A stretch of DNA of 62,710 bases, the filler included, from Dugesia japonica (Eukaryota), in assembly GCA_001938525.1 (NCBI GenBank). It is 5 parts of 5 records of this genome, joined end to end, with 100 filler letters (N's around TTAATTAATTAA, not from the genome) between each part and the next. Parts side by side here need not be neighbours in the genome. Positions count along the whole stretch, not along the records: positions 40,167 to 50,983 come from MQRL01591836.1; positions 51,084 to 62,710 come from MQRL01638843.1; 3 more parts are not named here. One strand, 5' to 3'. The notes beneath the pieces were generated by a model that ran no database searches, was not told the DNA's origin, and saw only the letters and a list, made by a program, of their open reading frames with translations. The position numbers were made by a program, and so were the translations under genes. Each line of letters opens with the position of its first letter. Within the stretch, counting starts at the first letter, position 1. This document shows, one piece after another, positions 2,880-61,670 of the stretch.

Positions 2880-2947
2880 TTTTCTAAAGAAATGATTTAA
2901 TCATACACCCACTAAAAGGAGGTAAATTTTCCATTTAACATTTTATA

Positions 2948-3901: not shown

Positions 3902-4040
3902 TTACAGTTATTGAGAGAATAATTGTAGGACTTAACCATTGGTCGCATTTGAGATTTCATCAAAATAAAGAAAAAGCTTCGATCCAAATAAAATGTATTA
4001 GTAAAAAAGTTCAAATTTTCGACAATTGTCTTCGAAGACT
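3902..4040 (-). mobile_element. Degenerate copy of the Penelope-like/hammerhead short repeat family
   Basis: Shares GAGAATAATTGT(A/T)GGAC..ACCATTG and AAAGCTTCGATC with 58930-59175 and 60213-60417. It has a degraded GAC-AATT-GTC-GAAA core. Confidence 0.65.
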
Positions 4041-29101: not shown

Positions 29102-29400
29102 TCAATCAAGTATATATTCTCCATTTTTATCTACAACCTCTTCCCAACGTTTGATCAAACCTTTAATGCCATTCCTATACCAGGGACTGGACTTTTCATT
29201 AAAGAACTGAGTAAGGGCAGTTTCGATATCATGCATTCTGTCAAAAGTTTTGTCACGAAGGAAATGTTGTAGAGATCGGAACAAATAGTAATCTGAAGGT
29301 GCGATGTCTGGGTTATATGGAGGCTGGGGCATTACTTCTCATTGAAAGGATTTCATCTTCTGCTGGGTCACTTTTGCAGTGTGTGGCCTAGCCCCGCCGT
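29102..29400 (-). pseudogene. mariner transposase C-terminal fragment
   Basis: ARPHTAKVT, PPYNPDIAPSDYYLFRSLQHFL, WEEVVDKNGEY. Confidence 0.92.
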
Positions 29401-32165: not shown

Positions 32166-33789
32166 GTTATTAAAAAGAAATTAGTTGACTAAAAATGTAT
32201 TTAAAATGTACACATACTACTATTATGCAAACAACAATATATCTCAAATATCACAGAAACATTTGAAAATATAAATGAAATTTTACATACAATATAATTT
32301 CATAGTAAATAAAATCAATAAGCACTATCCGAACAAGATTATCCACTAGNACATGCAAATTCGGAAATATTTGAAGCTTTAAACATGTATGAATAAACGT
32401 TGACAGATTTAATAATTGATGTTTTGCTTCTATCAAACGTAATTAACATAACATAATAAAAATATCTCATAGAAGGCAGAATGTTACAATGGTATCTAGA
32501 TCACGCAATTATTATTTAAAAAATACATGGAAAAATAGAATATGAAAAATAATCGTTGGAAAATTACATTAAATTTAATGTTAAATTGAGAAATGAATTT
32601 AAAGCCAAAGACCATAAATTTGGAGATATGTATTTCGTAATATGCAAATAATTTTATTACATTTATATTTTGGCAATAGAAAACTGTTTAATAACCACAT
32701 TTATTAATAAAAGTCTAGAAAAGGAAGAATAAATATGTATTTAATTATGACTTCAGTTATCAACATACCTAAATCAGTAAACAAACACCGTTCTATTATA
32801 CTATATAATATACATCTGAACTCACAGTTAAGTATTAATTACGCAACATTCAACTTTAATGATTATTTATAATATATATAATATAAATCACATGATGTAT
32901 ATAAAATATGTATAAAACAGGCATAATACANNNNNNNNNNNNNNNNNNNNNNNNNNNNNNNNNNNNNNNNNNNNNNNNNNNNNNNNNNNNNNNNNNNNNN
33001 NNNNNNNNNNNNNNNNNNNNNNNNNNNNNNNNNNNNNNNNNNNNNNNNNNNNNNNNNNNNNNNNNNNNNNNNNNNNNNNNNNNNNNNNNNNNNNNNNNNN
33101 NNNNNNNNNNNNNNNNNNNNNNNNNNNNNNNNNNNNNNNNNNNNNNNNNNNNNNNNNNNNNNNNNNNNNNNNNNNNNNNNNNNNNNNNNNNNNNNNNNNN
33201 NTAATTAACAGATTCTCGCAAGAATTTATTCTACTATGTACTTATTTAATATCATTCATTTCTGCCATATTTAATAACAATAACAACTATTCGAAATATA
33301 GACAACAATTCTCTAGGGATTTCTGCCACCGAACTACATTGATGCGGATCTGGTATAAGTATCACGTTGGTTTCTTAGAGCTTAAAAACTGTTGGCAAGT
33401 CAAGTCAACGTTATCAAATGATTCGAAACAACTACCACACAAAAATTGTTCCATTAAGCGAAAGATGCCCTTTTTAGAAAGAGCAGCATCTGGACTATAG
33501 GCTTAATGCGACAGGACATTGACACCATTCAACTCGTGAACTTTTACTCGAACCTCATAATTAGAATTTAGTTGTTTTCTGATATAAAATAACTTTTTTT
33601 AAACTATGGTTAATATTTATTTTGAATTTTTGGAACCATTTACTTTATATTCAAACTGTGATTTTCATGAACATTTAGAGCAAACCGCATGCGAGCAAAA
33701 AATATCAGTTTAAGCTTTAAAAAATTTGCTTTTATCAATTTTGAAATAACGCTTAAGTTCATTGTTATGATTTTTTTAATCTAAATTTT

Positions 33790-40166: not shown

Positions 40167-40336
40167 AATTTAAATCTAATGTTACTAAATTAGATATTCA
40201 GTGTGGAGTGGTTGACCTTCAACCTTTACGGGAGGTTCACACACACACCTTTGGTTTGGGTTAGTTTGTTTCCCTATTATTTTAATCGTCAAATAAAGAA
40301 ATAAGATGTTAGTAGTAACATATATTATTTAATAAT

Positions 40337-40597
40337 TCACATCTCATCCAGAGCACCCGGGTCTAACCACTGGGTAGGCTCTTCTGGTAAAAAATCGAAC
40401 AACACTGAGTCGTCATTGTCGTCCCATTGTAAGCATGATACATTGCCTAATTGGCGGGACAGGTCCGATATATAATTCTTTAAAAAATTCATCTTGTTTT
40501 GGAGGAGCTGTTTAGTTTGCTCCGCCAAGTCTCCCTGTTTTTTAACTATTAAATCTAATTTTTTGGTTAATTTATTTCTTTGGGACAAATGCTTCAT
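40337..40597 (-). CDS. Small orphan coiled-coil ORF with acidic tail
   Basis: ORF track, 86 aa; heptad-like L/I spacing; lies inside the LTR-like unit. Confidence 0.45.
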   Translation of the reverse strand: MKHLSQRNKLTKKLDLIVKKQGDLAEQTKQLLQNKMNFLKNYISDLSRQLGNVSCLQWDDNDDSVLFDFLPEEPTQWLDPGALDEM

Positions 40598-40828
40598 GAG
40601 AGCATACTCGTTCTATCGTTTGACATGACGTTCAACTAATAATCGTTGTATCAGGCGGTGGCATCGTCTTAAACTTTTTTGGGAGTTGGATTCTTGGCAT
40701 TAAACAAGAAAGTATCAATTAATGTAACTCTTTTAACAGAAACTAATCTTTGTACAATAAATAACTCGACAGAAAATCAAATTAAAAACATAAAATGGTT
40801 TATTAAATAAATTTATAAATAAACGACA

Positions 40829-41188
40829 TCACAGACGCGTGGTATGCATACCCTTATCGACCATTAACGACTCGAGAGGCATTGCTACTATTAACTTTAA
40901 GACATCATTGACCAGTTTATTCTCTCGGTCTTGATAGGACCGGATGACCTCGATGAAAGATTCTATTTGGGTTTTCCATATTCGCTCTTGATTATGGGAG
41001 GCTTCCGCCTCCTTTTTAAAAGCGAGGCACTTGGCCTTATATCTTTTTACTTTACTCACGGAATTATCAATGTCTGCTTTCCATAGCCATTTCGCTAGGC
41101 GGTATAGGTCCCAAGTCACCTCTTAGTCTTCGTCGATTTCACGTAATTTTTTGGTGGGTGGTATGGTACGAGTTAACGAGGAATGCAC
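40829..41188 (-). pseudogene. Divergent 'MADIIK'-family coiled-coil ORF (one in-frame stop)
   Basis: KWLWK...FIEVIRSYQDRE aligns with LMADIIKTYADRK; starts at TTTAG|TG. Confidence 0.5.
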
Positions 41189-44100
41189 TAAATCAAAATG
41201 AATCATTAGTGAAGTTTACAATTAATTAGTGTAGACAAAAGAAAACACCTTCACAAATCATAGCCTTAAACTAGGCTGGATATTACTTACGACTTGTTCC
41301 TATTTATAAAGAATAATAATCTTAATCAAACGAGAAGACATAAGACTGGTGGTGAAATTACAAAAATTATTATTATTATTACAGCACTTAATAAAAATAA
41401 CAACTATCGTTATCAATGTCAAGTCTCATTATTGGGTGCATTATTTTCGGATTCACCCCCGTCAGCGATATTTCTCAGGTCCCATAAAGTGTTACCTATA
41501 TCACTGTATAATCTTGTGTTGGGAGGTAAATGCTCGACCAAGATGGGGGTCACTGATGGGCCTGCACGCCATTTGCTGGTAGTCGCAATCTCCTCACTAT
41601 TTATAGGTGAAAATGCCGTGGTAGAATGAAATACTTCTCGGCTTCGATCTGGGCCATCCCAAGCATAAAAAGCCTGGAGTTTGGCTTCGGCTCATTCCCG
41701 CTCGTTCTCAGCCTCCTTTGACAAATTTGAATAATCTATAAGAACACCCGCATTCCGATTATAGGGATTCGTATACTTCCTAAATATGGTGCGACCCGTG
41801 CGTCGATCCAACAAAACTTCCCATTTGTGATTCACTAAAAAAATAAAAAATGGTTTTTTATTTATAGACGAAATTTTGTTAAATCATTAATTAAATTTAT
41901 AAGAAACTCAAACAAAGATTTAACAATTTAATTATCCTTTAAAAAAACGTTAACTATAATACTTTCTTATTCAGCGTCGATATCCACATGAAAATTCAGT
42001 GGAACCATCTCAACGAAACAACATAAGTCAGTTTCGTCGGGATATTCGATTTTCTCCTGTGACAATATATAAGCGAGCAGTTGTCTTAACCTGACTGCCT
42101 TACGTTGTTACTTAATCTTCCAGAGCGCATGTTTTAGTTCCGCAGGCATTCTCTAAATATTATGAACGATTTAGACTTAGATTAAGGAATAGAAATATGA
42201 TGACCCCTAAGTGTAATACCGATAAAAAAATAAAACTTAAACGGTAAGTTCCGGTGCTTGCAAAAATAAAATTTAATTAAAATTGAGTGACGATCAAAAT
42301 GCAACAATGCCAATAACAAAGTGTCAAAAACATTGTTCATGATCATAATAAATAAAATCGCATAAAACCTTCCATAATAAGTTTGTTAATCAACTTTTTA
42401 CCTGCTATTATATTAAAACTGTTAGAGTGATCCTCAAAAATTAAAGGAATTATTAACTCGAAAACCGTCGGTAACTTTAAGCTGGGGAATCTGATACAAA
42501 CGACATTTAAACGAACAAAAACAAATAAAGTTGAATCATATAATAAATAACACATACAATAACTAAATAAGTTTTCTGATCTTAAAATCATGATTCCTGG
42601 ATGATAGCAGAACTCTAGTTTGAACAGGTTAACACATTATGTATACTCAGGACACTTCCACTGATAACTACCTACAACCCAGATTGATTTTTCTTGGGGG
42701 TGCAATTTGGATCATTACATTTTCCGGGTGATTTCCTATTGTCTTTTTATTGTCGAAACTTGCTCACATCGCTAGGGTTTGCCGAACATCTGTTACGCCA
42801 AGTGAGAGAAAAGAAATCAGTGCTTAGTTCTATAAGATGGATACGACCAAACAGTTATCTCGCACTACTTCGGGAGATTTTTTCGTCAAGAATGAGTATT
42901 TCGTTTTCTTCTGGCGAAACATTTCCACTCTTTAATTATATTATAGATTATACAAGAAATTCTTTTTCTGATGATTTAATCGATGATCATACGTGATTCC
43001 TTTGTCGCCTGAATTTTAACATCAAGTGGCAGATGCATGAATTGCTAGTGCCTTGCACATATTCACTCAACAAATTATGTTCATATCGGTGCATGGTTGT
43101 ATTAGATAAAATATCGGTATGTGCATTAGTATCGATTTTATTTCCTTTCCCCGACGTAACTACTGATTTAGCTATTGTGATAGTGAGGCAGCAGATGATC
43201 ACCAGATTTTCTTAAAGTAATGTACAGTTTATGAATGGTACCGATCGCATGTAACTAAAATTAGTAACACAAGAAGACCTTATTACTCAATGCGGTTGTC
43301 TAAAAATAAATCTTATAATATCAGGTAATCATTCCATGATTTATTAGCACAAATACTGAATGATTAAATTATTCAATAAATATTATATTTTATTAACAAT
43401 GATCTTCATTCACATAAACTATATGCAATAAAATGCATTAAAATAAAAAGATGAATTACTTACTAAGTGATTTGTTTTGTAAAATATTCTGCAACGGTGG
43501 CCTTTGATTAAGGCTATGGTTAGCTAATTAATGATTTCTACTGTGAATTATCTTCTGGCTCTTTTAGACTACTTTCTTCTACTAATCTAATAAAGTTCTC
43601 GGTTAATTAATTTATCAGTAACGGCGATCTTACAATTTTTTGGTAATCCAATTGAGTACGTAATGCTTCTTAAAAAATCTCGTTTTTTCGTGAACAAGTT
43701 TATACGTAAGTCACTCAAAGAATTTGTAGTAAAAGTTGTTGTTTTTCATCTAAAATTTGGGGTCCTTTTATAGGATTTTCTGAAGCTTCCCGACACCATT
43801 ACCATTGGTTACTTATTTTTAGTTTGAAATTTACATTTCTCATTGGAGATGTTACTAATTTTTAGATTTTTTTAGAGTTTTTTGTGCTTCAATTGGCTTC
43901 TATTTTTGGAGTGACATGTGATTGTCATTTCTTTGTCCTATTTTTATTTTTCGGCCCTTATTGGTTCATTCTCCCAACCCTTGTAAAAACCTTCTGCATG
44001 GTCGTAAGATTTTCTATTGACAAGATCCTAATACTTCGGCACAAATTCTTCTCGAATTTTCTTGTACCAAGCTCCTGTGACTTTCCTGGGCAAAGTTATT

Positions 44101-44671
44101 CGTATAAAACGAATTTTTGAATTATTTTGTTTTATTTTATTTCAAAATTAATTGACATTTTCTGGTAAATAATTGTTTTCCTTTAATAATTTTCTTGGCT
44201 TTTATTATTAATTTAATAATTTCTTTTAATTCTTGGCATTGATGCGTGTTAGCTTTATTCACCCCGGTTCTTCGTATCCATTTTCACTTTTATTTTTTTT
44301 AACGGTTATTTTCATTATAGCCTATCTGGATTCTTAATTGTTTCTCCTTTTGAATTCCATTATTGATGATTATAATAGCCCTTTTGTTCTTCTTTACTGA
44401 TTTGAGATTTTGGGCCTTCTTTTCTTTTCTAANNNNNNNNNNNNNNNNNNNNNNNNNNNNNNNNNNNNNNNNNNNNNNNNNNNNNNNNNNNNNNNNNNNN
44501 NNNNNNNNNNNNNNNNNNNNNNNNNNNNNNNNNNNNNNNNNNNNNNNNNNNNNNNNNNNNNNNNNNNNNNNNNNNNNNNNNNNNNNNNNNNNNNNNNNNN
44601 NNNNNNNNNNNNNNNNNNNNNNNNNNNNNNNNNNNNNNNNNNNNNNNNNNNNNNNNNNNNNNNNNNNNNNN

Positions 44672-46102
44672 TATACCAGCGATAGGTAAACTCGAAATTC
44701 AAAAGAATGTCACAAGAAGGAAAATGAAGAATACAGACAAAAGAAAGAGTCAGACCAGTTACCAAAAGGAATAATTAAAGAAAAAACCGAAATTAAGGAA
44801 CTGAATATGGAGGATGATCAGTAACCTATTAAGTCGCAAAAAGAGAAAAGAAATGTTGGAAGACACAAACAGACTAAGAGAACAAAGAAAGAACAATTAA
44901 TAACAGTAGAAATTAATTCATTAACTGAAAGAAAGAAAGTCAAAAATAATGAATAATTAACGTACAGAAAATAAATTAAATGAATTAATTAGTAGAAGAA
45001 AACAGCGAAATTAAATCAAATTTATATCGGGAGAACAAAGAAATAAACATATAATTAAATTTTATGAATAAAATAAAATAAAATAATTTATTTATTTAAA
45101 TAAAATAAATTATATGAATTAAAATGATTTATTTTGAAGCAGAAAACAAATTATTTGTCAAAAATAAGAAAAATGAAGGTTTTCGATAGTTAAAATTGGC
45201 AGATAAGAAAATTATGGACAAGAAAAAATCGGGGAATTCAAAAATGCAAGTTAGGAAAAAGAAAAGATCCAGAGAAAAGTTATAAGGATCTGAATGTTGA
45301 CCAATAGAACTCCAGTAATTTTGGAATTCCAAAATTCTACCCAATAAGAAGAAATCCTGTGATAAAATTAAAATAACCGGCCAATAAAAATGCCAAGAAT
45401 AATAGAAGGAACGAGGGGGTGAAGAGAAACCGGTATAAATACCGATGAAATTTTCACCAAAATATCATCCTTTTTATCAAAAAAATACTGATGTTGAACG
45501 GAAAATTTTTAATTATCACAGAAGTTGATTATTTTTGCTATTTGATTACTGGTGCAACGATTTTTGGCTCGACTCGAAAATGAAAGATTATGGAGGACCT
45601 CTTGAATCGTTAATGACTACTGAAATAGTGTCAATTCACATGCTATGCTTGCTCCAGATCGGGATTCAGGTCATGTTAGTTGTTTTGCTTATTATAATTG
45701 TTAAATTTATGTACAAGTGACAGTAAAATTTATAATATATTTTTCACTTGTTAAACTTGTTTCTTTTTATTTTTTATTGATTAATTGAACCATAAACTAG
45801 AAAAATCATGATTAATTACGATTAAAATAGATAATACGCTAAAATAGAAACGGATAAAATAAGAGTTACTAGGAGAATAAATAGTAAGAATCAAGTATGA
45901 TTGAAAAACCAAGCGAGTATTATGAAATATGAACCCAAACCAAAGGAGTGCAAGTCTGTACTCGGATTCTGAGTCAACGGCTTCATTCCAAAGATCGAGA
46001 TTTTTGGGGACACCAGATTAAATTCTTTTCGTGGTTTACTAAGCCAACCACCTCAGCCTTGATTATTAAAAAATCACCCCCCCCCTAGATGAAACCCCAA
46101 CA
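44672..46102 (+). mobile_element. ~1.5-kb LTR, empty-site copy of the 51146-55895 LTR; left end lies in the N gap
   Basis: Colinear with 51177-52254 plus 55465-55895. TATAAATA at 45434; ends CCCCAACA. Confidence 0.85.
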
Positions 46103-46296
46103 TTATTATTATTATTATTATTATAATTATTATTGTAATGACTTTTAATCATATTACATTTTAAATTAAAAATATACTTTAAGCAAATTCATTTTGTTTA
46201 AATATTATATTTTAATAGAAAAGCATAAATTAGAATTTATAAAATATTGCCATGTTTGTCTCGTACTATGGAATCAAAATTGTACGAACTCATCAC

Positions 46297-48135
46297 TGGT
46301 GTCAGAAGCTGTTCACACGAGAGCACTCAAATAACTACAAAATTTCCACAATACTTCGAATATCCATCAATGTTGTTCAAGCAAGTTGAAGCAATCTTCA
46401 GGATTTCAAGAATATGAAGAGAAGATTCCAATCTTCTCATGACGGATGGAAGGAAAACCACTGATACATCAATGACCGACATTAGAGCAAAATGGTTCTC
46501 CATACAGAAGAAGTTAAAGAGTGAGATCACGGATCTGAAACAAAGGAATGCACAACTCAGAAGTAAAATTGATAAGATGAAGGAAAGAGAACTGTTGCTA
46601 TCACAAACATGCCGAGCCATGGCAGATATTATTAAGGCCTACGCGGATCAGGCAGGAGTACTGATTTTTAAGTTTTTATGCCCGTTTTTAAATTTCTTTT
46701 AAATTTTTATGCCCGTTTTTTTACTAAGCCTATTTTAAAATGTCTATGAAATATTTTATAACATATTTTAAATTTGATGGTAATTTTTATTTTTTATTTA
46801 TTTGCCAGGGGAGGGGGGTTTTAGGGGGGTCTTCAATGAAAAATCAATGCGGGCAATGCGCCACTATCTACCTACAATCTTATCTACAACTTACTGTCAG
46901 CAGTTCTAGCTACAGAATCCGAAACACCATATACAGTTCTTCGAGAAGCTTAAATCAGCAGTAGCAAACTACCAATCTCAAAACATGTGGATAAAATGCT
47001 TCTCCTCGAACCTCTGGGAGATCAAAGACCATCAGATCGCCTTCAACAACTAGGGAAACACTTCCAAGTGATAGAACCAAATTACAAAGGTACAGACAAT
47101 AGCATGCTGTTAATAGATGCCTTCATAAGAGCAATGCCTCAAAGTATCAAGCCTTATCTCGTCTCTAAGGAAAGCTGCTCATTGACAGAACTAGGACAAT
47201 TGGCTGACAGACTTGCGCAAATTGAATCTTCACAAATTTTACACAGCATCTCAAGTCAAACAAATACAAGCAAAATACAGGAGCTACGAGATGAGATAAA
47301 TCAACTTCAAATGGTTTATGCACAAAAGTCAATATGAACAGATGGAACTTGCTATTACCAGCGCAAATATGAAAAATTAGCCACAAAATGCCGTGAGCCA
47401 TATGATTGGAATTCTAAACAAACACAGGAAAACAGCAAAGGGTCTCAATAATTCCAGTGATTGAAAACCCTATCACTATTGAACCGGAACTCATCTCTAC
47501 AATATTGACTGTTCCAGCAAATTATCAAAGTCAGGTAATAAATTTTCTAATCGACACAGGATCAGATGTTAGTATTCTATCAGCCAAACAATTTCACATC
47601 GATCAATGTGAAACTACCAAACAACTAATTTCAGCTGGTGGTAGCACAATTCTAACTCGAGGACAACGCACTTTAAGCTTTAACATCGTTGGACTTCCAC
47701 AAAAATTCAAGTGGAGATTGATTGTCGCAGAAGTTCGTCAACCGATATTGGGATCAGACTTTTTCAGACATAATGGCATTATAATAGACTGTCGAAGGAA
47801 TCGTATTATTCTTGACAACAACACTGCGCAAGAATCACAAAAGAATGATCATTCCAATAGAACAGCGCACAATTATAATCTACAACACAAACCAGAACTT
47901 TGAATCATGAAAACTGGACCACCTATATCTCAAAGATCTCGAAGGCTAGCTGGAACAATACTTGAAACAGTTCGCCATAAATTTGACAAAACTTCTAGAA
48001 AAAGGAATTGTCAGAAGAAACACGAGCACCAGGGCATCAACGTTGATTGTTGTCAAAAAGAAAGATAATACCTATCGCCCATGCTGTGACTACCAGCTAC
48101 TAAATTCAGTTCCCATTCCTGACAGGTATCCTTTA
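46297..48135 (+). mobile_element. Gypsy internal region: PBS, gag, aspartic protease, 5' RT; truncated
   Basis: TGGTGTCAGAAG PBS (tRNA-Leu-type 3' complement); KFPQYF..LFKQVEAIF; LGDQRPS; FLIDTGSDVSIL..ILGSDFF; IVVKKKDNTYRPCCDYQLLN..PDRYPL. Confidence 0.9.
46439..46702 (+). CDS. 'MADIIK'-family coiled-coil ORF lying inside gag
   Basis: KW..QKKLKSEITDLK..MKERELLLSQTCRAMADIIKAYADQ aligns with 48149-48469 and 54757-55130. Confidence 0.6.
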   Translation: MTDGRKTTDTSMTDIRAKWFSIQKKLKSEITDLKQRNAQLRSKIDKMKERELLLSQTCRAMADIIKAYADQAGVLIFKFLCPFLNFF

Positions 48136-48139
48136 TTAA

Positions 48140-50900
48140 TTTGCATTACTACAAGTCCAGGTACACCGTGGCATTATTCTTTCTTGGTTCCTTCGGTGGA
48201 CTTCGGTACAACAGCCACATCGATCTTAAATTATGAAATAACGTCACCTCTCGATCGGTGAAGATCTTTATGATGTCCGCCATTAATCGGTTGGCTTGTT
48301 GCAGAGCCACCTCCTTTTCTTTCAACTGTTGGTATTTAGTGGTATGCTTTGTTGCCTGGCTCTTCAACTGCAACACTTCATTTCGCAGCCCTCGACGTCT
48401 CTCCTTCCACTTCTTCTGCATATTAAGTACTTCTTTCATGGTTATTTTATTTTCCGCTGTTCTGTCCACTAAATCATAATGAAAATTTAAAATGTTTTAG
48501 CACTACAAACGAATTAGATAGGCAAGCAAAACAATATTATAATTAAACTTGTAATCGACAAAATTTCAAATATGAAAACGACCAATGTGTGAACACTCAA
48601 ATGCAACAATCACTTGTGTCTCGAAACAATAATAACACCCGAATGAAAATTTAAATATAACAATGTCATGACACCACTGCCTTTGCAAAACTTTTGCTCT
48701 GAATCGTGTCTTACATATCACACTCTTTAACGCAAATAATTTCATTAAAATTGAACAAAAATTTCTCAACTCGAAAATTACACTCTAATAATTTCATTGA
48801 TAGTACAATTTATTCAGGCACAGTACCGCTCAAGCCCATCAAATCTTGTATTATCTCACGTTCCGCTGCTTCTTCGTCCATCTCGGCAGCATGTGAAAGA
48901 CAGTAAGTACTAACGATTTTCAGTGGATCACCGGAGAGCTCCTCTTTGAGTTGTTTTATCTGGAACATCGGGGACTCTCGTGCCATTTGAATCTGGAATT
49001 CCAATGATCTGATTCTCGTATTTTTCATTGCCAGCTGCAGACGGACAGTCTTATTGTCAGCCTCTAAATTCCTGATTTCATCGCGCTGAATTTCCGTCTA
49101 CTTCTTCATCTACGCCTGTACTTTGTTCCATTCAATATAATAACGTCCCGCCTCATCAATGTAAGGCCATACATAACGAGGTCTTTAAAGTGATCGTTTG
49201 TTCTTCATCACCTAATAAATGCAAAGTAAACAATATTTATAAATGGAAATATAAATGAGTTCATAATATCAATGATGGATCAGTTTTTATTACGGTTTCT
49301 TCGGCCCGCGGCCTATTATTTTGTTTCCACCGCTGTATAACACGAACCAGAGAAGATGATCACTTAAAGCAAGCATCTTTTCTCGTTCCGGTTATCGTCA
49401 AGCTCTATTAAGAATTCCTTACATCGTTACCATGCAATTTTCCCTGTAGAGATGGTACAAAATGTCTCCTTTCATAATAATAACGATATTAAAAATATAA
49501 ATTAAAAACAGACGCCAATACTGACTAGTTATCGAATTCATTTTTAACTAACTTAATTTTTTGACTGTATCATCAATTACTGCATTGAACCATGAGGTTA
49601 ATATTCATTTACAAAATTTTTATTTTTCGAGAAAATAATTAGTAATAAATAAAATAAAATATATGCCAATTAACCTATTTAAAATTATAGACTGAGCAAA
49701 ATTAAATAATGAATATAATATTTATTATCAGAATTTTCTTTATCGACAAAAATTAAATAAAAATAAAATTTACAAAACCTATAACGTTCATGATTAAAAA
49801 AATTCATATCTCAAATAAAATAAATAGAAGTTGAACATCGATAATCTCTTCCACATAATTGACCAAGCTCCCCAACGTTCCTCGTTTGAACATTACCATA
49901 TTTTACGATTAATTACCCTTAACCTCGACTCGATACATTTCACACCAATCCTTTCTACTCATCTCATAATACTCTTGTACCCTCTTTTCATATCTTTATT
50001 TCCTATCGGCAATAATAAATTTCAATAAATTTCAATATTTCAATATATTTCAATAAATTTTTAAATCTTCTCATTGCTCTCTTGTCATTCTCTCCTGTCT
50101 TACATCGAATTAAATCAAAATATCATTTTTCATAAACAGGAGCCTGGTCATTCAGATGAAATTGATTTTCGGTAATGGCACTCAGAAAAATATTTACAGC
50201 AAAATGTTACAAACAATTAATAATAATACTTGTTTTAATTTCGAAATCGTTTGTCCAAAGATTTAAATCGACTATACTAGTAATATTTGCTTATGTTGAA
50301 AAATACTAAAGAATGATACTATCAAAATTTATTTTAAATTATGCTATCTTTTGTCCTCATCATCTGGTTTTATTCTTCGTTGTAGTAAGACATTTTGGCC
50401 CTCGATTAGCCTGCCAATGATTTTATGATTTTCTCTCTCCGAGTTTCCCGATTGGTTTCCCCTTCCTCGTGTTTGGTGTACATCTCTCAGTGTTTTTGCA
50501 TGTGAACTCAGACATTTCGGATTTCGATAAGTTTCGACTGTCACCTCGAATGTGACCTCTTATTAATCCGTTGGGTTCCATGCAAAGTCCTTGCCTGATT
50601 CCTGGTGAATAAGCAGTTTTCGTAGTTTATTTGCGAGTATTATCACCCGATTCAGACAAGACAATATGACTGGACCAAACTTAATTATCTTTATAATAAT
50701 ATCAAACGCTAATTAGCGTTATTTATAATAAACAAAACTGGTCGTAGAGACCCTTCTAATATTTTATTATATTATTGTAGATTATTTTTATTATTTAATT
50801 CGTCATATCCTTTTATCTCATATAATTTTCATTCAAATGTGATGACATTTGGGTCTTCTACGCCTGATTTTCGATTTTCGACATTTTCATAAATAATTTC
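48140..50900 (-). mobile_element. Truncated homolog of the 52255-55460 gene cassette
   Basis: Same order: WNxT..VTVE ORF (~50690-50340), conserved hairpin/GGCC block (~49290-49400), coiled-coil ORF B (~49210-48810), MADIIK ORF (48469-48149). Confidence 0.75.
48149..48469 (-). CDS. 'MADIIK'-family coiled-coil ORF, intact frame
   Basis: KKWKERRRGLRNEVLQLK..KEKEVALQQANRLMADIIKIFTDR..LRSMWLLYRSP. Confidence 0.7.
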   Translation of the reverse strand: MDRTAENKITMKEVLNMQKKWKERRRGLRNEVLQLKSQATKHTTKYQQLKEKEVALQQANRLMADIIKIFTDREVTLFHNLRSMWLLYRSPPKEPRKNNATVYLDL

Positions 50901-50901
50901 A

Positions 50902-50925
50902 TAATAATTATTATAATAATAATTA

Positions 50926-50983
<58 letters not shown>
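50902..50983. repeat. (TAA)n microsatellite
   Basis: Direct reading. Confidence 0.95.
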
Positions 50984-51083
50984 NNNNNNNNNNNNNNNNN
51001 NNNNNNNNNNNNNNNNNNNNNNNNNNNTTAATTAATTAANNNNNNNNNNNNNNNNNNNNNNNNNNNNNNNNNNNNNNNNNNNN
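50984..51083. other. Artificial contig spacer
   Basis: N44-TTAATTAATTAA-N44. Confidence 0.95.
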
Positions 51084-53225
51084 TTAGAATATTTAAAAAT
51101 TAATTAGAATTAAGTATTTAAATATGATATTTTAAGTAATGCATCTGTTGGGGTGAATCACTTGATATTGAAAAATAAACCAGCAATTAGGTACACCTGA
51201 AATTCGAAAGAATGTATACGAAATAAAACGAAGAATACAAACAACAGAAGGAGTAAAATCAGTTACGGAAAGGAATAATTGAAGAAAAAGACCGTGATTA
51301 CCGAACTAAAGAAGGAGAGATGACTCGTACAAAGAGAAGGAAATGTTGAAAAAACACAAACGGACTGAAAGAACAAAAAAAGGACAATTGATAACAAATA
51401 AAATTAATTCATTAACTAAAAGAAAGAAAGTCAAAGAAAATGGATTATCATCTCACAGAAAATAAATAAAAACGAATTAATTAGCAAAAGAAAACAGCGA
51501 AATTAAATTAAAGTTAATCAGGAAGACAAAGAAATGAACAANNNNNNNNNNNNNNNNNNNNNNNNNNNNNNNNNNNNNNNNNNNNNNNNNNNNNNNNNNN
51601 NNNNTAAAATAAATCTAAGAATTTAAAATAAATTATTTTTAAAAGAAAAATAATTGTTTCATGAAAAATGGCAAAAACAACGACTTTCCATAGTGAAAAA
51701 TTAGCAATTAAAATGGTTCTGGTCTAGAAAAAATCGGAAATCTTGAAAATCTAAGTTAAAAAATCGTTAGGAAAAAAGATACAAGGGTTGGAAGGTTGAC
51801 CAATAGATTCTAAGTCCAAAAATATCAACCAATAAAAGAGCTCACATGACGTTCAAGCCAATGGAAACGTCAGAAAAGTCGTACTATTCCAAATAACCAA
51901 TGAACGAAATTGGGGTGTGAAGAGAAACCGGTATAAATACCGATGAAAATTTCACCAAAAATCAATCTTTATCAGGGAAAATATCGAGTTTGACCGGAAA
52001 ATATTCAATTATCACAAAAGGTGATTATTTTTACTCTTTGATTCATGGTGCAACGATTTNNNNNNNNNNNNNNNNNNNNNNNNNNGGAACCCACAATAAT
52101 CAGTGTCGTTATGAAGATGGGGATCCAAGTTCATGGTTAATTGTTACGCAATTGGTGGTCATGATAAATACAATAAATCCTGTGTGCTTGCTCCGGATCG
52201 GGATTCAGTCATGTTAGTTGTTTGCTTATTATAATCGTTAAATTTATGTACCAGTGTTGGGCTAGAACACCAAAAATGGTGAAATAATAGAGTATGCAAA
52301 GATTGGCAAAATATTCCGAAAGTAAAGAAAAGTAAATATAAGATGGATGAGCTGGACCAGAAAATTGATTATTATGCATAAAATTATTATTATTATTGTT
52401 GTTATTATTATTATAATTATTATGAGAATATTATAAATAACGAAAATAAAAAATTGGGCAGGAAAGAACCAAATTTTATGTTACAAAACTGAAAATAATA
52501 TTAGAAGAAAGGAAANNNNNNNNNNNNNNNNNNNNNNNNNNNNNNNNNNNNNNNNNNNNNNNNNNNNNNNNNNNNNNNNNNNNNNNNNNNNNNNNNNNNN
52601 NNNNNNNNNNNNNNNNNNNNNNNNNNNNNNNNNNNNNNNNNNNNNNNNNNNNNNNNNNNNNNNNNNNNAGCTGATGAAAAATAACACGAAAATAATCAGC
52701 AGATTAGCTGAATCATTCCCTGCTAGACAAGGACTTTCTCTTGGTAACAATCCGAGGTCACACGAGGTGACTGACTGGAGAAACTAAGTCCTTTCCGAAG
52801 CGATGTATCGAAATTCGTACGACACAACACAACAATGAAGACGAAGACAACAACCAATCAGAAACCCGGATTGGACGAAAAACGAAGACGATTGGCGAGC
52901 AAATGAAGCAGGCCAAGTTGGGGTGTAAACGATTAATAAAACTCGTTTGCACCAGAGAATTAAACAGAAAATTTTTAAAATTTTAAAAAGAAAAAAAATA
53001 TTTTACTTAACGAAATTTTATTTTTTAACTATTCATTGGTAAAAACAATTTGGAAATTGCCACCAACTCGTGTCAAGAAGAAGAAAGACAAACCCACAAA
53101 TTTATTATCCAAATTTTTCGGAAAAAGGAGAATTGAAATAAATTCGATTAGTAAGCAATATTTTTTTTATTATTTTATCAAATTTCAAAAATAAAAACCT
53201 TTATTTTTTTCGTTTTCTACATGTG

Positions 53226-53500
53226 ATGCCGAGTGCCCTTGAAACGGTCATACTGCTAGTATCAAGAAAATTAGATGGAGAAATTATGGCCGAAATCTTA
53301 GGGTGGCAGAAAGTTGGAATTCAAAAATGGAATAGAACCAGAGAATTTGATGGGAAAATTATGCAGATCAGAAGGGTGACAGTCGAGTAACAGTATAAAA
53401 TTATTGAAGTTGAAATGACGGACGAACGATAAATTTGTTGGATTGTACCTGATAGAAAATGTCGCCAGAAATTGAATGATTTATGAGAGCTCGATTAATA
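53226..53500 (+). pseudogene. Cassette ORF A (orphan, disrupted)
   Basis: LETVILLVSRKL..KWNRT..RVTVE aligns with LNRVIILANKL..AWNPT..EVTVE at ~50690-50530 (-). Confidence 0.45.
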
Positions 53501-54029
53501 CCTTTGTTGTTTTTTAAATAATGCGTTGTAGCAGGCGGAACCGTGTCGTTAATGCTGAATTGACTTGAAATATTATAGTTTTGTAGTTGTGATTTCCACT
53601 TGTTATCTTTTAATTTTTATCATTTAATAATAAGAGGGTATTGAACTAATTTCAGTATTATAATACCTAAATTAAAAACGTGATTTCAATTGGTACTCAT
53701 TCATTTTTATAATTATAGCAGTAACCAATTTTGTGAAAATTTATAATTTAATTTTTTTTCTACCGCCAGAGAAGTATTTTTTTATTTACATCTCTTTTAT
53801 TTTACATCTCTTGCGAGAGTTCCATAAACATGAGAACGAGGAAAGATGATGGTTAAATCGTCATCTTCTCTGGTTCGCATATTCGGAGCAAGGAATCAGA
53901 ACTGATAGGCCGCAGGCCGAAGAAACTATAGCCAATTATTTATCTCATTGATCAATTATTGCTTAAAATTATACTTATATTCATGCCAAAAGAATAATTA
54001 AATTTAAATATTTTTTTATTATACAGATT

Positions 54030-54497
54030 ATGACAGTCTATTTTAAACCGCACATCTTGCTTGTGCTTACGAATGACGGAGAGGAGGGAACTTTCTGGAT
54101 TCCCTGGAGAAACGCGGTGGAATTGTTGGATGAACAGAAAGCGGTATACGAAAAAGGAAAAACTGATTTACTCTACAAAGGCGGCCAACTGGTTACGAAA
54201 TTCCGGGGCCTAAAACAATAGCTAAGGGATACCAAATCGAAGTTGCTGTTATGTCAACAAGAAAATGATAGACTCCGGCAGGGGAGACAAGCAATTAGAG
54301 AAAGTACGGAAAACTTGATTCGGCAACAAATGGAGCATAATTTATTATTGGGTCAGGTTTTGGCACTGACACCTGAAAGCACACAGGAGTCGAGTGGTGT
54401 CCAGCAGTTGGTCATCGTAAAGAGTAGCTTGCGACAAAGAATCAAAAAAAATTTTGAGTATTTCGGGATTTTGATCTTGTTTTTCAATTTTTATTAA
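54030..54497 (+). pseudogene. Cassette ORF B (coiled coil, one in-frame TAG)
   Basis: The two track ORFs share a frame. GEEGTFWIPW resembles DEAGRYYIEW at ~49160 (-). Confidence 0.5.
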
Positions 54498-54756
54498 AGA
54501 GGTCTAAGTGATATGTATGTCACTCAATGGTTACTAATTGTGAAATCTGCAGAGGCAGTAGTAGATAGAAATGTATGTTATCAAATCTAAATTTTTTTTG
54601 GTGTAAGCCAAACACAGAGTCAATTTTCTTTTATTCTAATAACAATCGGTTAACGTTAACTAAGTTTGGGTTCCTTTACTGGAGTATTACTTTAGTTCAT
54701 TTAAAATTTATTATAATCGTATTAGTGTTACAGATATTAAATGTTGACATTTATTA

Positions 54757-55130
54757 GTGAATAAATCGAAAGATACAAAGCTGTCGAGAGGAGAGGAAAA
54801 CGGACCACAAAGATGGAAAGAGGAGCGTCGAGAGTTAAAAAATGAAATCTTGAGGTTGAAGGGGCAGGTCTTGAAATNNNNNNNNNNNNNNNNNNNNNNN
54901 NNNNNNNNNNNNNNNNNNNNNNNNNNNAATCGACAGCCAAATATAATCAAATCAAGGAGAAGGAACTGTCCCTTCAGCACGCGAATCGATTGATGGCCGA
55001 CATCATCAAGACGTACGCGGATCGAAAAGGCTCCATGTTCGTTTCGCTGCGGACATTATGGCTCAATTATCGATCCCCAGAGGAAACAAGTACAGTTACG
55101 GAATCGACGATCGATTTGGATGCCAAATAA
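54757..55130 (+). CDS. Cassette ORF C, 'MADIIK' family (frame broken only across the N gap)
   Basis: QRWKEERRELKNEILRLK..KYNQIKEKELSLQHANRLMADIIKTYADRK..LRTLWLNYRSP. Confidence 0.7.
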
Positions 55131-57537
55131 ACGGAGTATACTGTAAAAATAAATGTTATTCAGTGTTGGTTGGAGTGATTCTGTATTATAGTACTACTTA
55201 TTTATTTGCATCCACTAGATTTATTTTTACTGAGCATGTTAGATTAGTACAGACCGGGTTCACAGGTTTTATAAGTAAGACGCGGTACCGCAAAGTCGCG
55301 CTGAACCTGTGGAAATAAAGGGGTATGTCACAGAGGTGACATAAATACTTGTGGTTTTTAGGTATGCCCCTAGACAGGTAATTGTAATAGAAATTATTGG
55401 AAACGAGATCGGTAAATTTGAAGCTAACATTTTAAAATACCAAATCCTAAAAACCCAACACCAGTAACAGTAAAATTTAGAATATATTTTTTCACTCGTT
55501 GAATTCTTCTATTCCTTATAACAGTAAAAACATAAGGTATTGATTTTTAACCTAAAAGTAGTAATTAAGCAAACTCGATTAAAAATGTTTAACCGTTAAT
55601 GTGAAAAGATTTTAATTAATGAGGACCTCAATAATTGATAAAATGAAATCTAATAAACGAGTTATAAGCTAAAGTCTAATAAACTAATGACTTATAAGTA
55701 ATAAGCATGATTTATAATAAATTTGGACCCAAAACAAAGGAGTGTGAGTCTGTACTCAGATTTCGAGTCAACGGCTCCATTCCGAAGATCTGGATCTTTG
55801 GGGACACCAGATTAAATTCTTGACGGGGTTTTATTAGGCCAATCACCCTAGACATAATTATTAAAAAATCGGCCCACATAGATAAAACCCCAACACATCT
55901 TTGAAAAAAGAAATGAAAGCTATTTGATATATAAATTTTTTAAAATTCGATATTTTGAATATCTTCAATTTTTTGATTTAAGTCTTTTATTCCATCAGCT
56001 TTATAGTTTTCAATAAAACAAGAATCTGTATGTTTATTAAATTGTTTTTTACTAATTTTAAATTTTTCATTAAAATAATTACATTTCCATTGGTAAGTTA
56101 AAGTTTTACAATTTCCAGTACCAATAAATTTTTCTTGACAAACATATATATTCTCTCATTTTAATCAATAAATATTTAATGTGAGTAAATGAGAATATAA
56201 AATGAGGAAATGAGGACTTTGTTCGCATCTTGAAAAAAATTGAATCAAATTAAAACATCTTGAAATAAAAATTATTTAAATATAAAAATGTCTCAGATTT
56301 CAAAATCGAAAGAAGTTAGTCTTGATATTTTAAATAAAATAAAAATGAATATACTAAATAAATTGAAAGATAAAAAATTAGAACATCCAATAAAATCAAA
56401 TAGTAAAATAGCTAAAGAAATAAATTATCCAATAAGAAAATTAAATGAAATATTAAGGAAAATGAATTGATTGAAGAAATTAAAGTTAGAAAAGCAACGC
56501 ACAGATATTCATATGATCCTATTTTAAAAAATAATTTAGAAATTCAATAGGTGAATATATATGATAAAAAATTAAAAATATTTAAAGAATCTGAAATAAA
56601 AAGAAAATTAAAACATAATGAAATATTAGAAGAAAGAAATAAAAAACATGAATTATATTTAATTGCATATGCTAAAAATCCAAATAAACATCCAAAATTA
56701 TGTGATTTAATAAAAAAGTATCCTGAAATTAATTTATCGCAGAGCTATGCTCGAGATTCTGATAATAATCCAAAAGCTGGTGGTATAAATATAAATCTCG
56801 AGCAAAGCTCTGCGAGTAATGAACTTGAACCTGAAATTTTTGATCCTCGAACAGAATTCTGTGAACAAAATTCTATTCAAGAAATTAAACAAAATGACAT
56901 TTATAAAATTACATCTAATATGGATAATATGGATAATATTGATCGAGAATTGATAATAAATTTTAAAAAGTCATACAAAATTTAAAATTCTCAAATTCTT
57001 TCAATAAAAAAATGGATGATTATCTTGATAATGTAAAAAAAGATCCAGAGTTTTTAAATGATTTNAAAAAGATTATCCAATAGTATGTAAATTAACACCT
57101 AAAGAACAAAGTGTAATGTTAAAAGAAATTTATTCAAATTATAAAGCAATTATAAAAACTGGTGAAATTTTAGTTGAAACTATATGTGAAATGAAAATGT
57201 TGAATTAACAGAAGAAAATATTCAATTAAAATATGTATTAAATGATAATAATTTATATAATGATGAAAATTTAAAATTTTATAGACAGAATAATAATAAA
57301 AAAAGAATATTCAAAAGATATCAAATCAATAGTAAATTATAGGTTAAATAAAACTTTGAATAAATTAAATAGTTTAAAATAATGCTTTAATAAATAAATT
57401 ATTATTTAAACAGAAAAAGTTATAAAATTATATGAAGGATGTGATTATTTAATTTTAGAGGTGGAATTTTTAAAATATTTTTTAAAAAACAATATTTTTA
57501 ATTTTTTTTTATTTTTGTAATGTTCTTATCATAGAAA

Positions 57538-58825
57538 ATGGAAGGATTAAAATTAGATATAGACAATAATTATGTTTTTAATCATGTAATATCTAAAAAG
57601 GATTTATTAAAAATATCACCAACAAGTAGTTCAATAGTTAAATTAAATCAACCTGGTGATATATTATTTCAATCATTACAATCAACAAATCCATTAGATA
57701 TTGGAAAATGCAATGTTATATTACAGAATAAAAATTGATACAACTACAGAAACTAAAATAAAATTGGAAAATAATTGGTTTCCAGCATTATTTAAAACAA
57801 TGAGATTTAAATTAGGATCAACAGTAGTTGAAGAAATGAATGATCCAGGAATTATATCAACAATGTTAAATTTAATTTTATATGATGAAGCAGTAAAACA
57901 TTATATAAAAGCATATGGTTGGATTCCAGATAATGAAGATGGTCTTGCAACAACAACAAATAAAGGATATCAATCCAGATTAAAATTATATACTGGTAAA
58001 AAATATGAAGGTTATTTTCCATTAAATAATTTATTTGGATTTATTCAACATTTTAATAGATTATTATATAATGTATTTATACAATTAGAACGTAATAGAC
58101 AAATAGATGATAAATTAATATTTTATGGCAAGTTTAAAATTATTAGCTTTAGAATTACATATTCCAGAATATACATTAAATCCAATAAAGGAAATGGAAT
58201 ATATAGAAGTAATAACAACTAATAAACCTATTCCAGTGTCATTTTTAAATCGAATTTCTGGAAATTAATCAATGGAAGCAGGAACTAATTATTCAATTAA
58301 AATGGCAAATTTAGCATATAAACCAAAATTTATTTTAATTGTATTTAAACCAGCAGAAATATCATTTGATAAAAATAATAATTTATTTATGCAACAAAAT
58401 AGTATAACTAAAAAAATGATAAAAAAGAAAAAGTTACAACAAAATATTGTATAAAAAGTATTCAAATTCAATTAAATAATACATATTATTCAATAAATAG
58501 AATGGAAATGAATATTAATAATAATGAAGAAATATTTCCATATCAAGCATATGTAGAAAAATATTAAAATTTTTTTTAATCAACCACAATCAACATGAAT
58601 TTAATGGAAAACTTTATATTCAATGTTTTGTATGAATGTATCAAAACAAGATTCAAAATTATCAATAAATAATGTAGATGTACATTACATATAACAAAAG
58701 AAACAAATTTTAAATTAAATATATATTGGTGTATATTAGAAAAAAAACATGTAGAATTAAAATTAGCAACTGATAAAATTGTATTTGTTGAAGATGTTAG
58801 AGGATAAGATGTTTCAAAAGGTTAA
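57538..58825 (+). pseudogene. Double jelly-roll major capsid protein (Polinton/adintovirus type), frameshifted
   Basis: LNQPGDILF, IKLENNWFPALF..LGSTVVEEMNDPGIISTMLNLI, FPLNNLFGF, KPKFILIVF; span about 430 codons. Confidence 0.75.
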
Positions 58826-59040
58826 TTTATAATTTATATAGAACATGGAGAATTGTTTGTAAGACTTCACAAAGAAAACATTTACTTGTATTTTTTGTAA
58901 TCAAATAAAATCTAAACATAATAAATCAATTGCAATTATTGCGAGAATAATTGTTGGACGCTACCATTGATCGTTTTTTAGAATTCATTTAAAATAAAAG
59001 CTTCGATCAAAAAAATTTTTGTTATATTTTTTTGGAGATT

Positions 59041-59075
59041 GAATCGATATTTCGACTTTGTCTTCGTCAGGAATT
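59041..59075 (-). ncRNA. Minimal hammerhead ribozyme motif
   Basis: AAUUC-CUGACGA-A-GAC-AAA-GUC-GAAA-UAUC-GAUU. Confidence 0.75.
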
Positions 59076-59088
59076 AAATTGAAAAGTC

Positions 59089-59123
59089 AATTCCTGACGA
59101 AGACAAAGTCGAAATATCGATTT
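59089..59123 (+). ncRNA. Minimal hammerhead ribozyme motif
   Basis: AAUUC-CUGACGA-A-GAC-AAA-GUC-GAAA-UAUC-GAUUU; intact core with a predicted AUC cleavage triplet. Confidence 0.75.
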
Positions 59124-59288
59124 AATCTCAAAAAAACAACATAAAAAAATTTTTTGATCGAAGCTTTTATTTTTTAATCAAGACATTTAAAATTATGAAT
59201 TACAAAGAAAGGGGCGATTTACAAAATAATAAATTAGTTTCATTATTATTAACACAATTTCCACAAGAAACATTTAAAGGAAAAAAGA

Positions 59289-60600
59289 CATATTCCTGGT
59301 CATAATTTTACTGGTCCAGGAACAAATTTTGAGAAAAGATTAGATGAAAATAATAATCCATTTCCAGGAAATGAACCAATAAATCAAGTTGATAAAGCTG
59401 CATATAAATATGATTTAGTATATAAAAAAGAAGATATTGGAGATAGACATATTGTTGATTTAAATATGATTCATGATTTAAATAATATGATTAATCCAAC
59501 ATTAAGAGAAAAATTAGAAGCTGAATTAGTTAAATTAATATTTAAAAGAAACATTCTTATTGGAAAAAGTATTTCAGGAGAAAATTTAGCGACAGAATTA
59601 CATAAAAATATAGAAAACCTAAAAAATATTTAAAATTTATAATTAATGAAATTGATGAAACATGGGGATGTGATATTGCTGATATGGTTAAAAAATCTAC
59701 GGATTCAAAATTTCGTTATATATTAGTTTGCATTGATTTATATTCTAGATATGAATTTTGTGTTCCAATGATTAATAAAATTCAAGAATCATTAAAAGAA
59801 CCATTTGAATTTATATTTGAAGAAAATAATAGAATTCCAAATAGTATATGGTTTGATAAAGAATCCTCAATAAAATCAAAATATTTTGATAAATTTATCA
59901 AAGAAAATAATATTAATTTATATCATACAGAGAATGAGGGAAAATCAGTTTTTGCAAAAAGATTTATTAAAACTTTAAAAAAAAAGTAGAAATATTTTAC
60001 ATCAATTGGAAACTAAAAATGGAATAATAATTTATTATAACAAATTGTCAATGAAAATAATAATACAATTCATAGTTCTATAAAAACAACACCAAAATAT
60101 GCTAGTGAAAATCCAGATAAAATAAAAGAAATTATTAATTAACATAATCATGAAAACTCCAACTTTAATTTTAAACAAAATTTAAAAATAGGAGATCGAG
60201 TTAGAATATTTATTTTTACAATTGCAATCATTGCGAGAATAATTGTTGGACATAACCATTGATCATTTTAGGGAATTCATTTAAACTAAAAGCATCGATC
60301 AAAATTTTTGTTTTTTTATTGATATTTGATAACAATTATAACAATTATAAACAATTCAATTGTTATTAAATATCAAAATAAACAAAACTTTTTATCGAAG
60401 CTTTTATTTTAAATGAATAGAATATTTAAATATAAATAAAAATTTGAAAAAGGATTTACAGATAAATGGACAAATGAAATAATTATAATAACAGAAGTAT
60501 ACAAGACAAAACCAATAACATATGGAATTACTGATTTAGATAATGAAAAGATTTTGGGTAGATTTTATGATAATGAACTTCAAAAAACTATATTTAAAAT
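59289..60600 (+). pseudogene. Parvovirus-VP1-like PLA2 domain in frame with a Polinton rve integrase
   Basis: HIPGHNFTGPGT..PINQVDKAAYKYDLVY reads on to LATELHK. Then WGCDIADM, YILVCIDLYSRY, IWFDKES, GDRVRI, FEKGFTDKWT, GRFYDNELQK, with frameshifts and stops. Confidence 0.9.
60213..60417. mobile_element. Second Penelope-like inverted-repeat insertion, no hammerhead core
   Basis: Same tail and arms as 58930-59175. An 11-bp TSD TAGAATATTTA (60202-60212 / 60418-60428) splits the integrase at GDRVRIF|KYK. Confidence 0.85.
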
Positions 60601-60925
60601 TTTTGTTTTTATAAATTTATAAAATATAATGTAAAAATAAATATAAGAATGGTTAAATATAGAAAGTATAAGATGAAATATATGAATCACTTGAGTTTTG
60701 TAATGAATTAAATTTAATTACTAATATTAGTCCTGGTTTTTGTATATTATAATATTTTATAATATAATATAATATTTCATTTGGCAAATAAAATATCCAA
60801 TGATTTAATTAATAAACAAAAAAGTTGGAATTAGAAAAATTAAAACAAGAAAATAAAAATCTAAAATTAGAAAATGAGAACCTAAAATTAGAAAATAATA
60901 AACTTTAATTTTTATTAAAAAGAAA

Positions 60926-61670
60926 ATGTCTAAAATCTCGCAAAGCACTGCTCGAGTAAAATCCCGCTGATTTGGAATAAAAATAAAAAATTATTTAATA
61001 ATAAAATATTTCCATCAAATTTTAGATTATTAATTATAGGATCATCAGGATGTGGGGAAAATGTATTATTATTAAAAATGTTAATTAACACCGGACTTTA
61101 TACATTATAATAATTTAATTATTTATTCAACAACTATAAATCAATTTGAATTACAATTAATGAGAGAAGGATTTGAAAATGGTTTATCAAAAGAAGATAT
61201 TATTTTAATTATTGAAAAACANNNNNNNNNNNNNNNNNNNNNNNNNNNNNNNNNNNNNNNNNNNNNNNNNNNNNNNNNNNNNNNNNNNNNNNNNNNAAAA
61301 AACCACAAAGTATATTTATAACATTAAGTAATAAACCTAATGATATAATTCCATGTGATCAATTATCGAATGCCTCTGCAAAAAAGAATTTAATTATTTT
61401 TGATGATGTTGTTAATGAAAAAAATCAAGAAATACAAAAATCATATTTTACAAATAATAATTGTAATGTAATTTATATAACACAAACATATTTTCATTTA
61501 GATAAAAATTCAATAAGAAATAATAGTAATTGTTTTATATTTTTTAATTAAATAAAACAGATAAAGATAATTTATATCATGATTTATTTAGTAATATTTT
61601 TTATAATAAAATGGAATATGATTATCAAGTAACATTGCATTGGAAAACAAAATATAATTATTTTTATTTN
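60926..61670 (+). pseudogene. A32/FtsK-like genome-packaging ATPase
   Basis: FRLLIIGSSGCG(K) Walker A, NLIIFDD Walker B, VIYITQTYF, SIRNNSN. Confidence 0.88.

Follow-up and report, generated by a model that had tools for sequence, protein, structure and literature searches.

Solo long terminal repeats (LTRs) are usually regarded as non-coding relics, and complex retroviruses carry accessory genes that overlap U3, or RNA switches (MMTV sag, HIV nef, TAR/RRE). Solo LTRs arise by recombination between the two LTRs of an element (PMC6839031). Burro/GYPSM1, the Gypsy-like giants of planarians, and Ogre of plants are described as very large LTR elements with accessory open reading frames (ORFs) in the internal region, which in Burro/GYPSM1 is 25 kb long and has a giant ORF1 (MATH, BIR, BCL2, env-like) (PMC6431247). 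The MDG1 group of Drosophila (412, Mdg1, Blood, Stalker) is reported to carry sORF1 and sORF2 upstream of gag, with unspliced RNA; sORF1 is described as nuclear, with a short polyadenylated transcript and a predicted helix-turn-helix, and sORF2 as a membrane protein (PMC11952523). Additional genes are also reported for fish foamy-like endogenous retroviruses (ERVs) (PMC5210030) and for Tat-clade and fungal chromovirus elements (PMC2774666), and the solo repeats of cestode ta-TRIM elements are described as transcribed, yet small and non-autonomous (PMC4558846). We analyzed a stretch of 62,710 nucleotides, filler included, from Dugesia japonica (GCA_001938525.1; the whole stretch is called the window), and found two elements, X and Y, that probably go back to the same 3-kb mobile element, of which they would be old copies. 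This element is likely a solo LTR left by a large retrotransposon of the Gypsy type, with a promoter-like block, a hairpin and a selected gene for a predicted coiled-coil protein that likely regulates the element.

X (48140–50983, minus strand) and Y (52255–55460, plus strand) lie on separate contigs, since the window consists of contigs concatenated via N-flanked linkers and one such linker occupies 50984–51083. X is a diverged copy of the Y family, whose 5' end is truncated by the contig end and whose 3' end is replaced by an unrelated Gypsy pol fragment. We aligned the two elements block by block at the DNA level, using 200 nulls per block for the z-scores and a windowed scan as a second comparison. 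The results showed that X and Y are colinear DNA homologs with five blocks in the same order: the 5' end after an (ATT)n tract (z 3.9, 1/200 nulls), a promoter-like block (X 50650–50366 against Y 52669–52943; z 7.7, 0/200), a conserved non-coding block (z 19.2, 0/200), the spacer between ORFs B and C (z 2.5, 2/200), and ORF C (z 17.7, 0/200). The preliminary description, which had reported two diverged cassettes in the same order on different contigs, was borne out in this respect. Its statement that the AT-rich spacers do not align held for the long spacer between the promoter-like block and the hairpin (z 0.7, 50/200 nulls) and not fully for the B–C spacer. It had also described three shared ORFs, A, B and C; translated comparison (TBLASTX) gave coding high-scoring segment pairs for ORF C only, none of them colinear with element Z (40167–44432, minus strand), and DNA colinearity of Z with X or Y was not found beyond AT-rich noise. 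At the protein level, ORFs A and B are without significant similarity between X and Y, the outcome which that description had named as refuting its reading. Of the old multi-gene module proposed there, inheritance as a unit rather than as random captured fragments stands, and a conserved three-ORF module does not. Judged by the non-coding blocks and ORF C, X and Y are descendants of one mobile element. The order is the same because both are copies of one transposon, and conserved gene order in itself is ordinary transposon paralogy and no surprise.

Y is a complete 3.2-kb insertion, likely a giant solo LTR. It starts with TGTTGGG, ends with CCCAACA, and is flanked on both sides by CCAG, a 4-bp target-site duplication with copies at 52251–52254 (plus strand) and 55461–55464. 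Its host is the element R5 (51146–55895, plus strand), which is about 1.5 kb long without Y, has the ends TGTTGGGG...CCCCAACA, of the same type as those of Y, and is flanked by a 4-bp CATC duplication. A paralog of R5 without the insertion, R4 (44672–46102, plus strand), has three CCAAT boxes and a TATA box at 45433, and its 5' end is hidden by an N gap. BLASTN of R4 against contig 5, which carries R5 and Y, showed that the homology breaks at 52256 and picks up again at 55460; R4 is uninterrupted there and has a single target site near 45705–45720 in the empty-site alignment, and is the empty site of Y. The R5–R4 homology ends exactly at the terminal CCCCAACA of R5. Because permissive local alignments ran past the insertion breakpoints, the BLASTN ends were used instead. 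The simplest reading of Y in R5 is a solo LTR within a solo LTR. R also contains a small ORF (45535–45720 and 52090–52256, both plus strand) with a C-terminal hydrophobic, membrane-like stretch and basic residues; this ORF spans the stretch of R with the highest conservation (93% over 74 bases), its R5 copy is disrupted, and Pfam gave no match for it. We regard it as a lead to a possible small membrane accessory protein.

The TG...CA ends of Y fit the TGTNR pattern described for the termini of Gypsy elements (PMC2836005), and its inverted repeat of only 7 bp and its 4-bp duplication also suit a solo LTR. The ends and the duplication raise the alternative that X and Y belong to the DNA transposons, as non-autonomous units mobilized by a transposase of the Gypsy-integrase-like (Ginger-like) kind, with a passenger gene aboard. 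Ginger elements are described with TGTNR termini, 4-bp duplications, lengths of 2.6–7 kb and occasional introns (PMC2836005), and Y is complete between its duplications with no second repeat seen. However, the inverted repeats reported for Ginger are 40–270 bp long, against 7 bp in Y and 9 bp in R5, with only background identity further in, and for this reason Y was not assigned to Ginger; the reported Ginger1 targets are CCGG/CCGT, against CCAG for Y and CATC for R5 (PMC2836005). Neither X nor Y contains an integrase-like transposase ORF or a remnant of one, although a non-autonomous copy would not need it. We consider this alternative unlikely.

Within the putative LTR, one of the shared blocks resembles a promoter. 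In Y it lies at 52669–52943 (plus strand), with CCAAT boxes and a GTCAC-N-GTGAC palindrome at 52757–52771, and its promoter function is predicted from these motifs; in X it lies at 50366–50650 (minus strand), with the palindrome at 50540–50556, and coincides with what had been described as ORF A. The ORF A described for Y (53223–53390, plus strand, 55 codons) is without a supported homolog. As a gene common to X and Y, ORF A was rejected: its protein comparison gave z 1.2 (138/1000 shuffles), two TAA stops separate the two words of the WNxT..VTVE pattern in X, and the ORF A of Y did not match its positional equivalent in X (z −0.9). The DNA of the X 'ORF A' aligned better with the non-coding Y block at 52669–52943 than with the ORF A of Y (z 3.2, 1/200), and a 12-base word common to the X block and the ORF A of Y explains the match reported earlier. 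The 'VTVE' of X overlaps the spaced palindrome. This GTCAC–GTGAC palindrome occurs in three copies (the third at 55327–55340), in X and Y only within the window, against 0.05 expected and 0/100 shuffles, for a pattern picked post hoc. The third copy is near the 3' end of Y, together with a TATA-like word and an AATAAA at 55314, and it may mark a second promoter, which would place the ORFs in U3. CCAAT and AATAAA motifs are present in these elements, and a clear TATA was found only in R4 and Z.

ORF C carries the protein-level evidence. In Y it lies at 54757–55130 (plus strand), split by a 50-N gap and followed by AATAAA at 55148; owing to this gap, the intactness of the Y copy is unreadable. 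In X it lies at 48149–48469 (minus strand), with 106 stop-free codons and a predicted single long helix. A third copy, W (46439–46702, plus strand), has its own ATG and is cut short, with homology ending near 46655, and a fourth, very distant copy lies inside Z (40829–41122, minus strand). The X protein matched the two halves of the Y protein with z 10.2 and 29.5 (0/1000 shuffles each). Between X and Y, the proportions of nonsynonymous and synonymous differences (pN and pS) were 0.30 and 0.85, so that pN/pS was 0.36 (bootstrap 0.25–0.50, 89 codons), and the identities at the first, second and third codon positions were 60, 75 and 37%; between X and W, pN/pS was 0.54. Four of five control frames gave pN/pS of 0.86–4.2. 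This codon pattern shows purifying selection on ORF C.

To characterize the ORF C family, we used profile searches. A search of 1.84 billion proteins gave seven matches, five of them real; the other two (P0005 and P0007) matched through repetitive coiled-coil sequence and were discarded. A second search brought the total to 18 proteins, the first five included, which are 63–115 residues long, unnamed, and encoded on contigs of 508–2243 bases. A profile built from 17 of these external proteins, with no window sequence, recovered W, X and Y with E-values from 1e-13 to 4e-12 and the Z copy weakly (independent E-value 0.012), the best unrelated match being at 3.7; in pairwise comparison the Z copy was not significant. 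The family members have in common a core whose last residues are YADRE, and 16 of 22 family rows close with a [VI]-x-[LF]-D word. AlphaFold2 predicted one helix over residues 11–88, with a mean predicted local distance difference test score (pLDDT) of 84. By this model, ORF C would be an unnamed small-protein family with one long helix and an acidic tail like a SUMO-interacting motif. No Pfam family above the cut-off, no solved relative and no named protein was found among the matches; the single-sequence search gave no matches, the Atlas gave generic matches only, with recognition below the threshold, and the PDB gave one designed protein only. Scans of JGI metagenome DNA, IMG/VR (2.9 million viral contigs) and GTDB gave no relatives. 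The tree has long branches and shows the window copies without a starred clade, and was for this reason not used for the origin of the family.

ORF B lies at 54027–54497 in Y (plus strand), after an acceptor-like AG at 54026 and with one in-frame stop, and at 48810–49211 in X (minus strand), after an acceptor-like AG at 49212, with three in-frame stops and a coiled-coil-like C-terminal part. The word G-x-aromatic-aromatic-I-x-W, a pattern picked post hoc, occurs across the six frames at these two places only, about 21 codons past the acceptor-like AG in both. Local comparison of the two copies was not significant (protein z 0.6; DNA z 0.4), and the anchored comparison was marginal (z 2.1, 61/2000). 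On this evidence, the ORF B copies appear positionally equivalent only, which is what remains of the earlier claim of a shared gene. ORF B has no Pfam family and is not matched by the ORF C profile, and the first part of the Y copy has no match in the Atlas. A reassigned stop code, under which its TAG stops could be read through, was set aside because the X copy also has a TAA stop and because translation by the standard code leaves other long ORFs uninterrupted.

The state of ORFs B and C bears on a second alternative, in which ORF C is a host gene that an LTR-like element captured, promoter and introns included, and that has been decaying since, the selection signal being older or independent. 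Acceptor-like sites stand ahead of both B and C (for C, seen at 48470 and 54756), stops interrupt the X and the Y copy of ORF B, and the synonymous sites are saturated at pS 0.85, so that the selection on ORF C is undatable. Against this, four ORF C copies are found in one 16-kb repeat nest, with 13–52% identity to the ORF C of X, and all 18 relatives of a gene without Pfam family, solved relative or named protein are on contigs of at most 2.2 kb. A captured and decaying host gene is accordingly improbable, and we return to an LTR-borne gene of the element itself.

The conserved block between X and Y is non-coding. It lies at 53830–53926 in Y (plus strand) and at 49295–49395 in X (minus strand), and in each copy consists of a long hairpin (53830–53880 in Y, 49395–49337 in X) followed by a short GGCC hairpin. 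Its DNA identity (77%) is above that of the third positions of ORF C (37%), and X and Y share no open frame in it. Folding showed the same long hairpin on the sense strand of both copies (z −3.2 and −3.0; 1 and 2 of 200 shuffles), the opposite strand folding more weakly (z −1.8 and −2.0). The hairpin ranked first of 140 windows in Y and third of 136 in X. Among the 22 consensus pairs, five are changed on both sides and two on one side, and simulated copies with 18 random changes kept the stability in only 9 and 20 of 2000 cases. These results are suggestive of retention of the hairpin through divergence and, with two sequences, are not proof of it. Rfam covariance models gave 0 matches over 40167–56300 at E up to 1, and the hairpin was not found in Z and R4 (z −1.2 and −1.1). 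A cis-acting RNA signal and a microRNA precursor would both fit it.

Several points weigh against the reading of X and Y as solo LTRs with a selected gene. The window showed neither a full-length element nor a primer-binding site, a polypurine tract or gag-pol linked to X or Y, and no internal region is attached to them. Scans for the genomic context of the 18 ORF C relatives turned up no loci, and an LTR location of these relatives is therefore putative. The pattern of TGT...ACA ends with a 7-bp inverted repeat and a 4-bp duplication was observed 7 times in the window, against a null mean of 6.97, and by itself proves nothing; none of 100 nulls had such a pattern beginning with TGTTGGG, a criterion set post hoc. 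As the end motif is common by chance, the argument for the insertion rests on the BLASTN breakpoints, which are independent of it. The mirrored antisense frame over ORF C gave pN/pS of 0.52, as expected of a mirror, which shows that the test does not single out one frame. Only two sequences underlie the hairpin, and the changes in two of its basal pairs are alignment-dependent. The common X/Y block is without a canonical TATA box, and promoter, splicing and expression of the LTR unit are predictions from motifs. Finally, the acidic hydrophobic terminal word of ORF C is, by resemblance, a candidate SUMO-interacting motif.

In the mechanism that we propose, an integrase would have made the Y insertion, and recombination between two LTRs would have left the solo copy. 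Each LTR would act as a compact transcription unit: its CCAAT block would start an RNA that is spliced to either ORF B or ORF C as the 3' exon, at the conserved acceptor-like sites ahead of them, and that ends with the AATAAA at 55148. The ORFs would lie either in a long R region or in U3. The hairpin would serve as an RNA signal in cis. ORF B, which is broken in X as well as in Y, would be a second accessory gene that evolves faster, and ORF C would most likely be a trans-acting regulator of the element. If the rest holds, a possible role of ORF C, offered as a guess, is that of an adaptor that associates with itself and, through its acidic hydrophobic tail, binds host silencing factors marked with SUMO, so that the element stays transcribed. 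PIWI control is reported to act on planarian LTR elements (PMC8532177), which would give a silencing-countering ORF C a purpose if the host is a planarian. Even more tentatively, X and Y could belong to an invertebrate 'complex' retrotransposon lineage in which the LTR is a regulatory cassette (a spliced unit, a hairpin and a coiled-coil anti-silencer with a SUMO motif), solo LTRs persist as dispersed, expressible regulator genes, and related LTRs swap or lose their cargo (X/Y, W, Z and the near-empty R). If true, the presence of an RNA structure and of a protein gene under selection in a multi-kilobase LTR would imply that LTR-borne regulators occur outside vertebrate retroviruses, and that they outlast the deletion of their parent element. 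ORF C, as a small unannotated protein family, is directly testable.

The remaining features of the window are mostly other repeats. Z is at least 4.3 kb long and contains CCAAT boxes, a TATA at 43773, several small or broken ORFs, and a coiled-coil ORF at 40337–40597; its 3' end resembles R4 (z 4.2), and it is probably a further cargo-bearing terminal repeat. Between W and X, at 46954–48140 (plus strand), lies a decayed Gypsy gag-protease-reverse transcriptase fragment with a Pfam protease match, probably of an unrelated element. The window has 27% GC, and its matches, among them zinc fingers of the C2H2 type, an RRM exon and pieces of Gypsy and Polinton elements, point to an animal genome; tRNA genes were searched for and none was found. 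Polinton/Maverick-like fragments lie at 1–2900 (minus strand), which looks B-family polymerase-like by eye and has an endonuclease VII match as its sole Pfam match, and at 56551–61551 (plus strand), with Pfam matches to a jelly-roll capsid, a PLA2-like protein and an integrase. The presence of such pieces (jelly-roll, PLA2-like and rve matches at 57698–59986) would suit a reading in which the cassettes are remains of a Polinton or an endogenous DNA virus whose small genes stand in a row, but Y, inside R5, has ends and a duplication of its own, R5 ends at 55895 before these pieces begin, and ORF C has 0 relatives in the viral contigs scanned, which makes this origin highly improbable. Two tandemly duplicated coding segments at 19857–20204 and 22199–22474 (minus strand), about 51% identical over 70 residues, have no Pfam match. 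Short inverted-repeat elements resembling miniature inverted-repeat transposable elements lie at 58927–59173, 60219–60418 and 3111–3331, with relatives at 3891–3991 and 13526–13614. Fragments at 29129–29317 and 33311–33499 (minus strand) resemble C-termini of mariner transposases, the first being without a Pfam match.

What may be new here, in comparison with the described systems, is that a putative LTR contains a protein gene which is under selection and uncatalogued, together with a conserved hairpin. Literature searches, in a coverage without Repbase and most subscription papers, turned up no account of a protein-coding gene within the LTR of any invertebrate Gypsy element, so that the element may be catalogued already. 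Ginger1 and Ginger2, as described, share with X and Y the TGTNR ends, the 4-bp duplication and a similar length, and differ by inverted repeats of 40–270 bp and a transposase, both absent from X and Y (PMC2836005). Complex retroviruses and the fish foamy-like ERVs (for the latter, PMC5210030) are alike in the long LTR, the 4-nt duplication, the internal promoters and selected accessory genes without assigned function; they are vertebrate Retroviridae, however, and the analysis showed no link to them in sequence. Burro and Ogre are alike in being very large with accessory ORFs, and the LTRs reported for Ogre, at 1.9–6.5 kb, span the size of Y, whereas the extra coding capacity described for them is internal (PMC6431247) and that of X and Y lies inside the putative LTR; Y is likened to them by description. 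The MDG1 group resembles X and Y in being Gypsy-type with small, selected accessory ORFs of about 70–110 residues, as far as that source describes them (PMC11952523). In contrast to the MDG1 ORFs, those found here lie inside a duplication-bounded terminal unit, behind acceptor-like sites, and the predicted ORF C protein is one long soluble helix, neither a helix-turn-helix nor a membrane protein.

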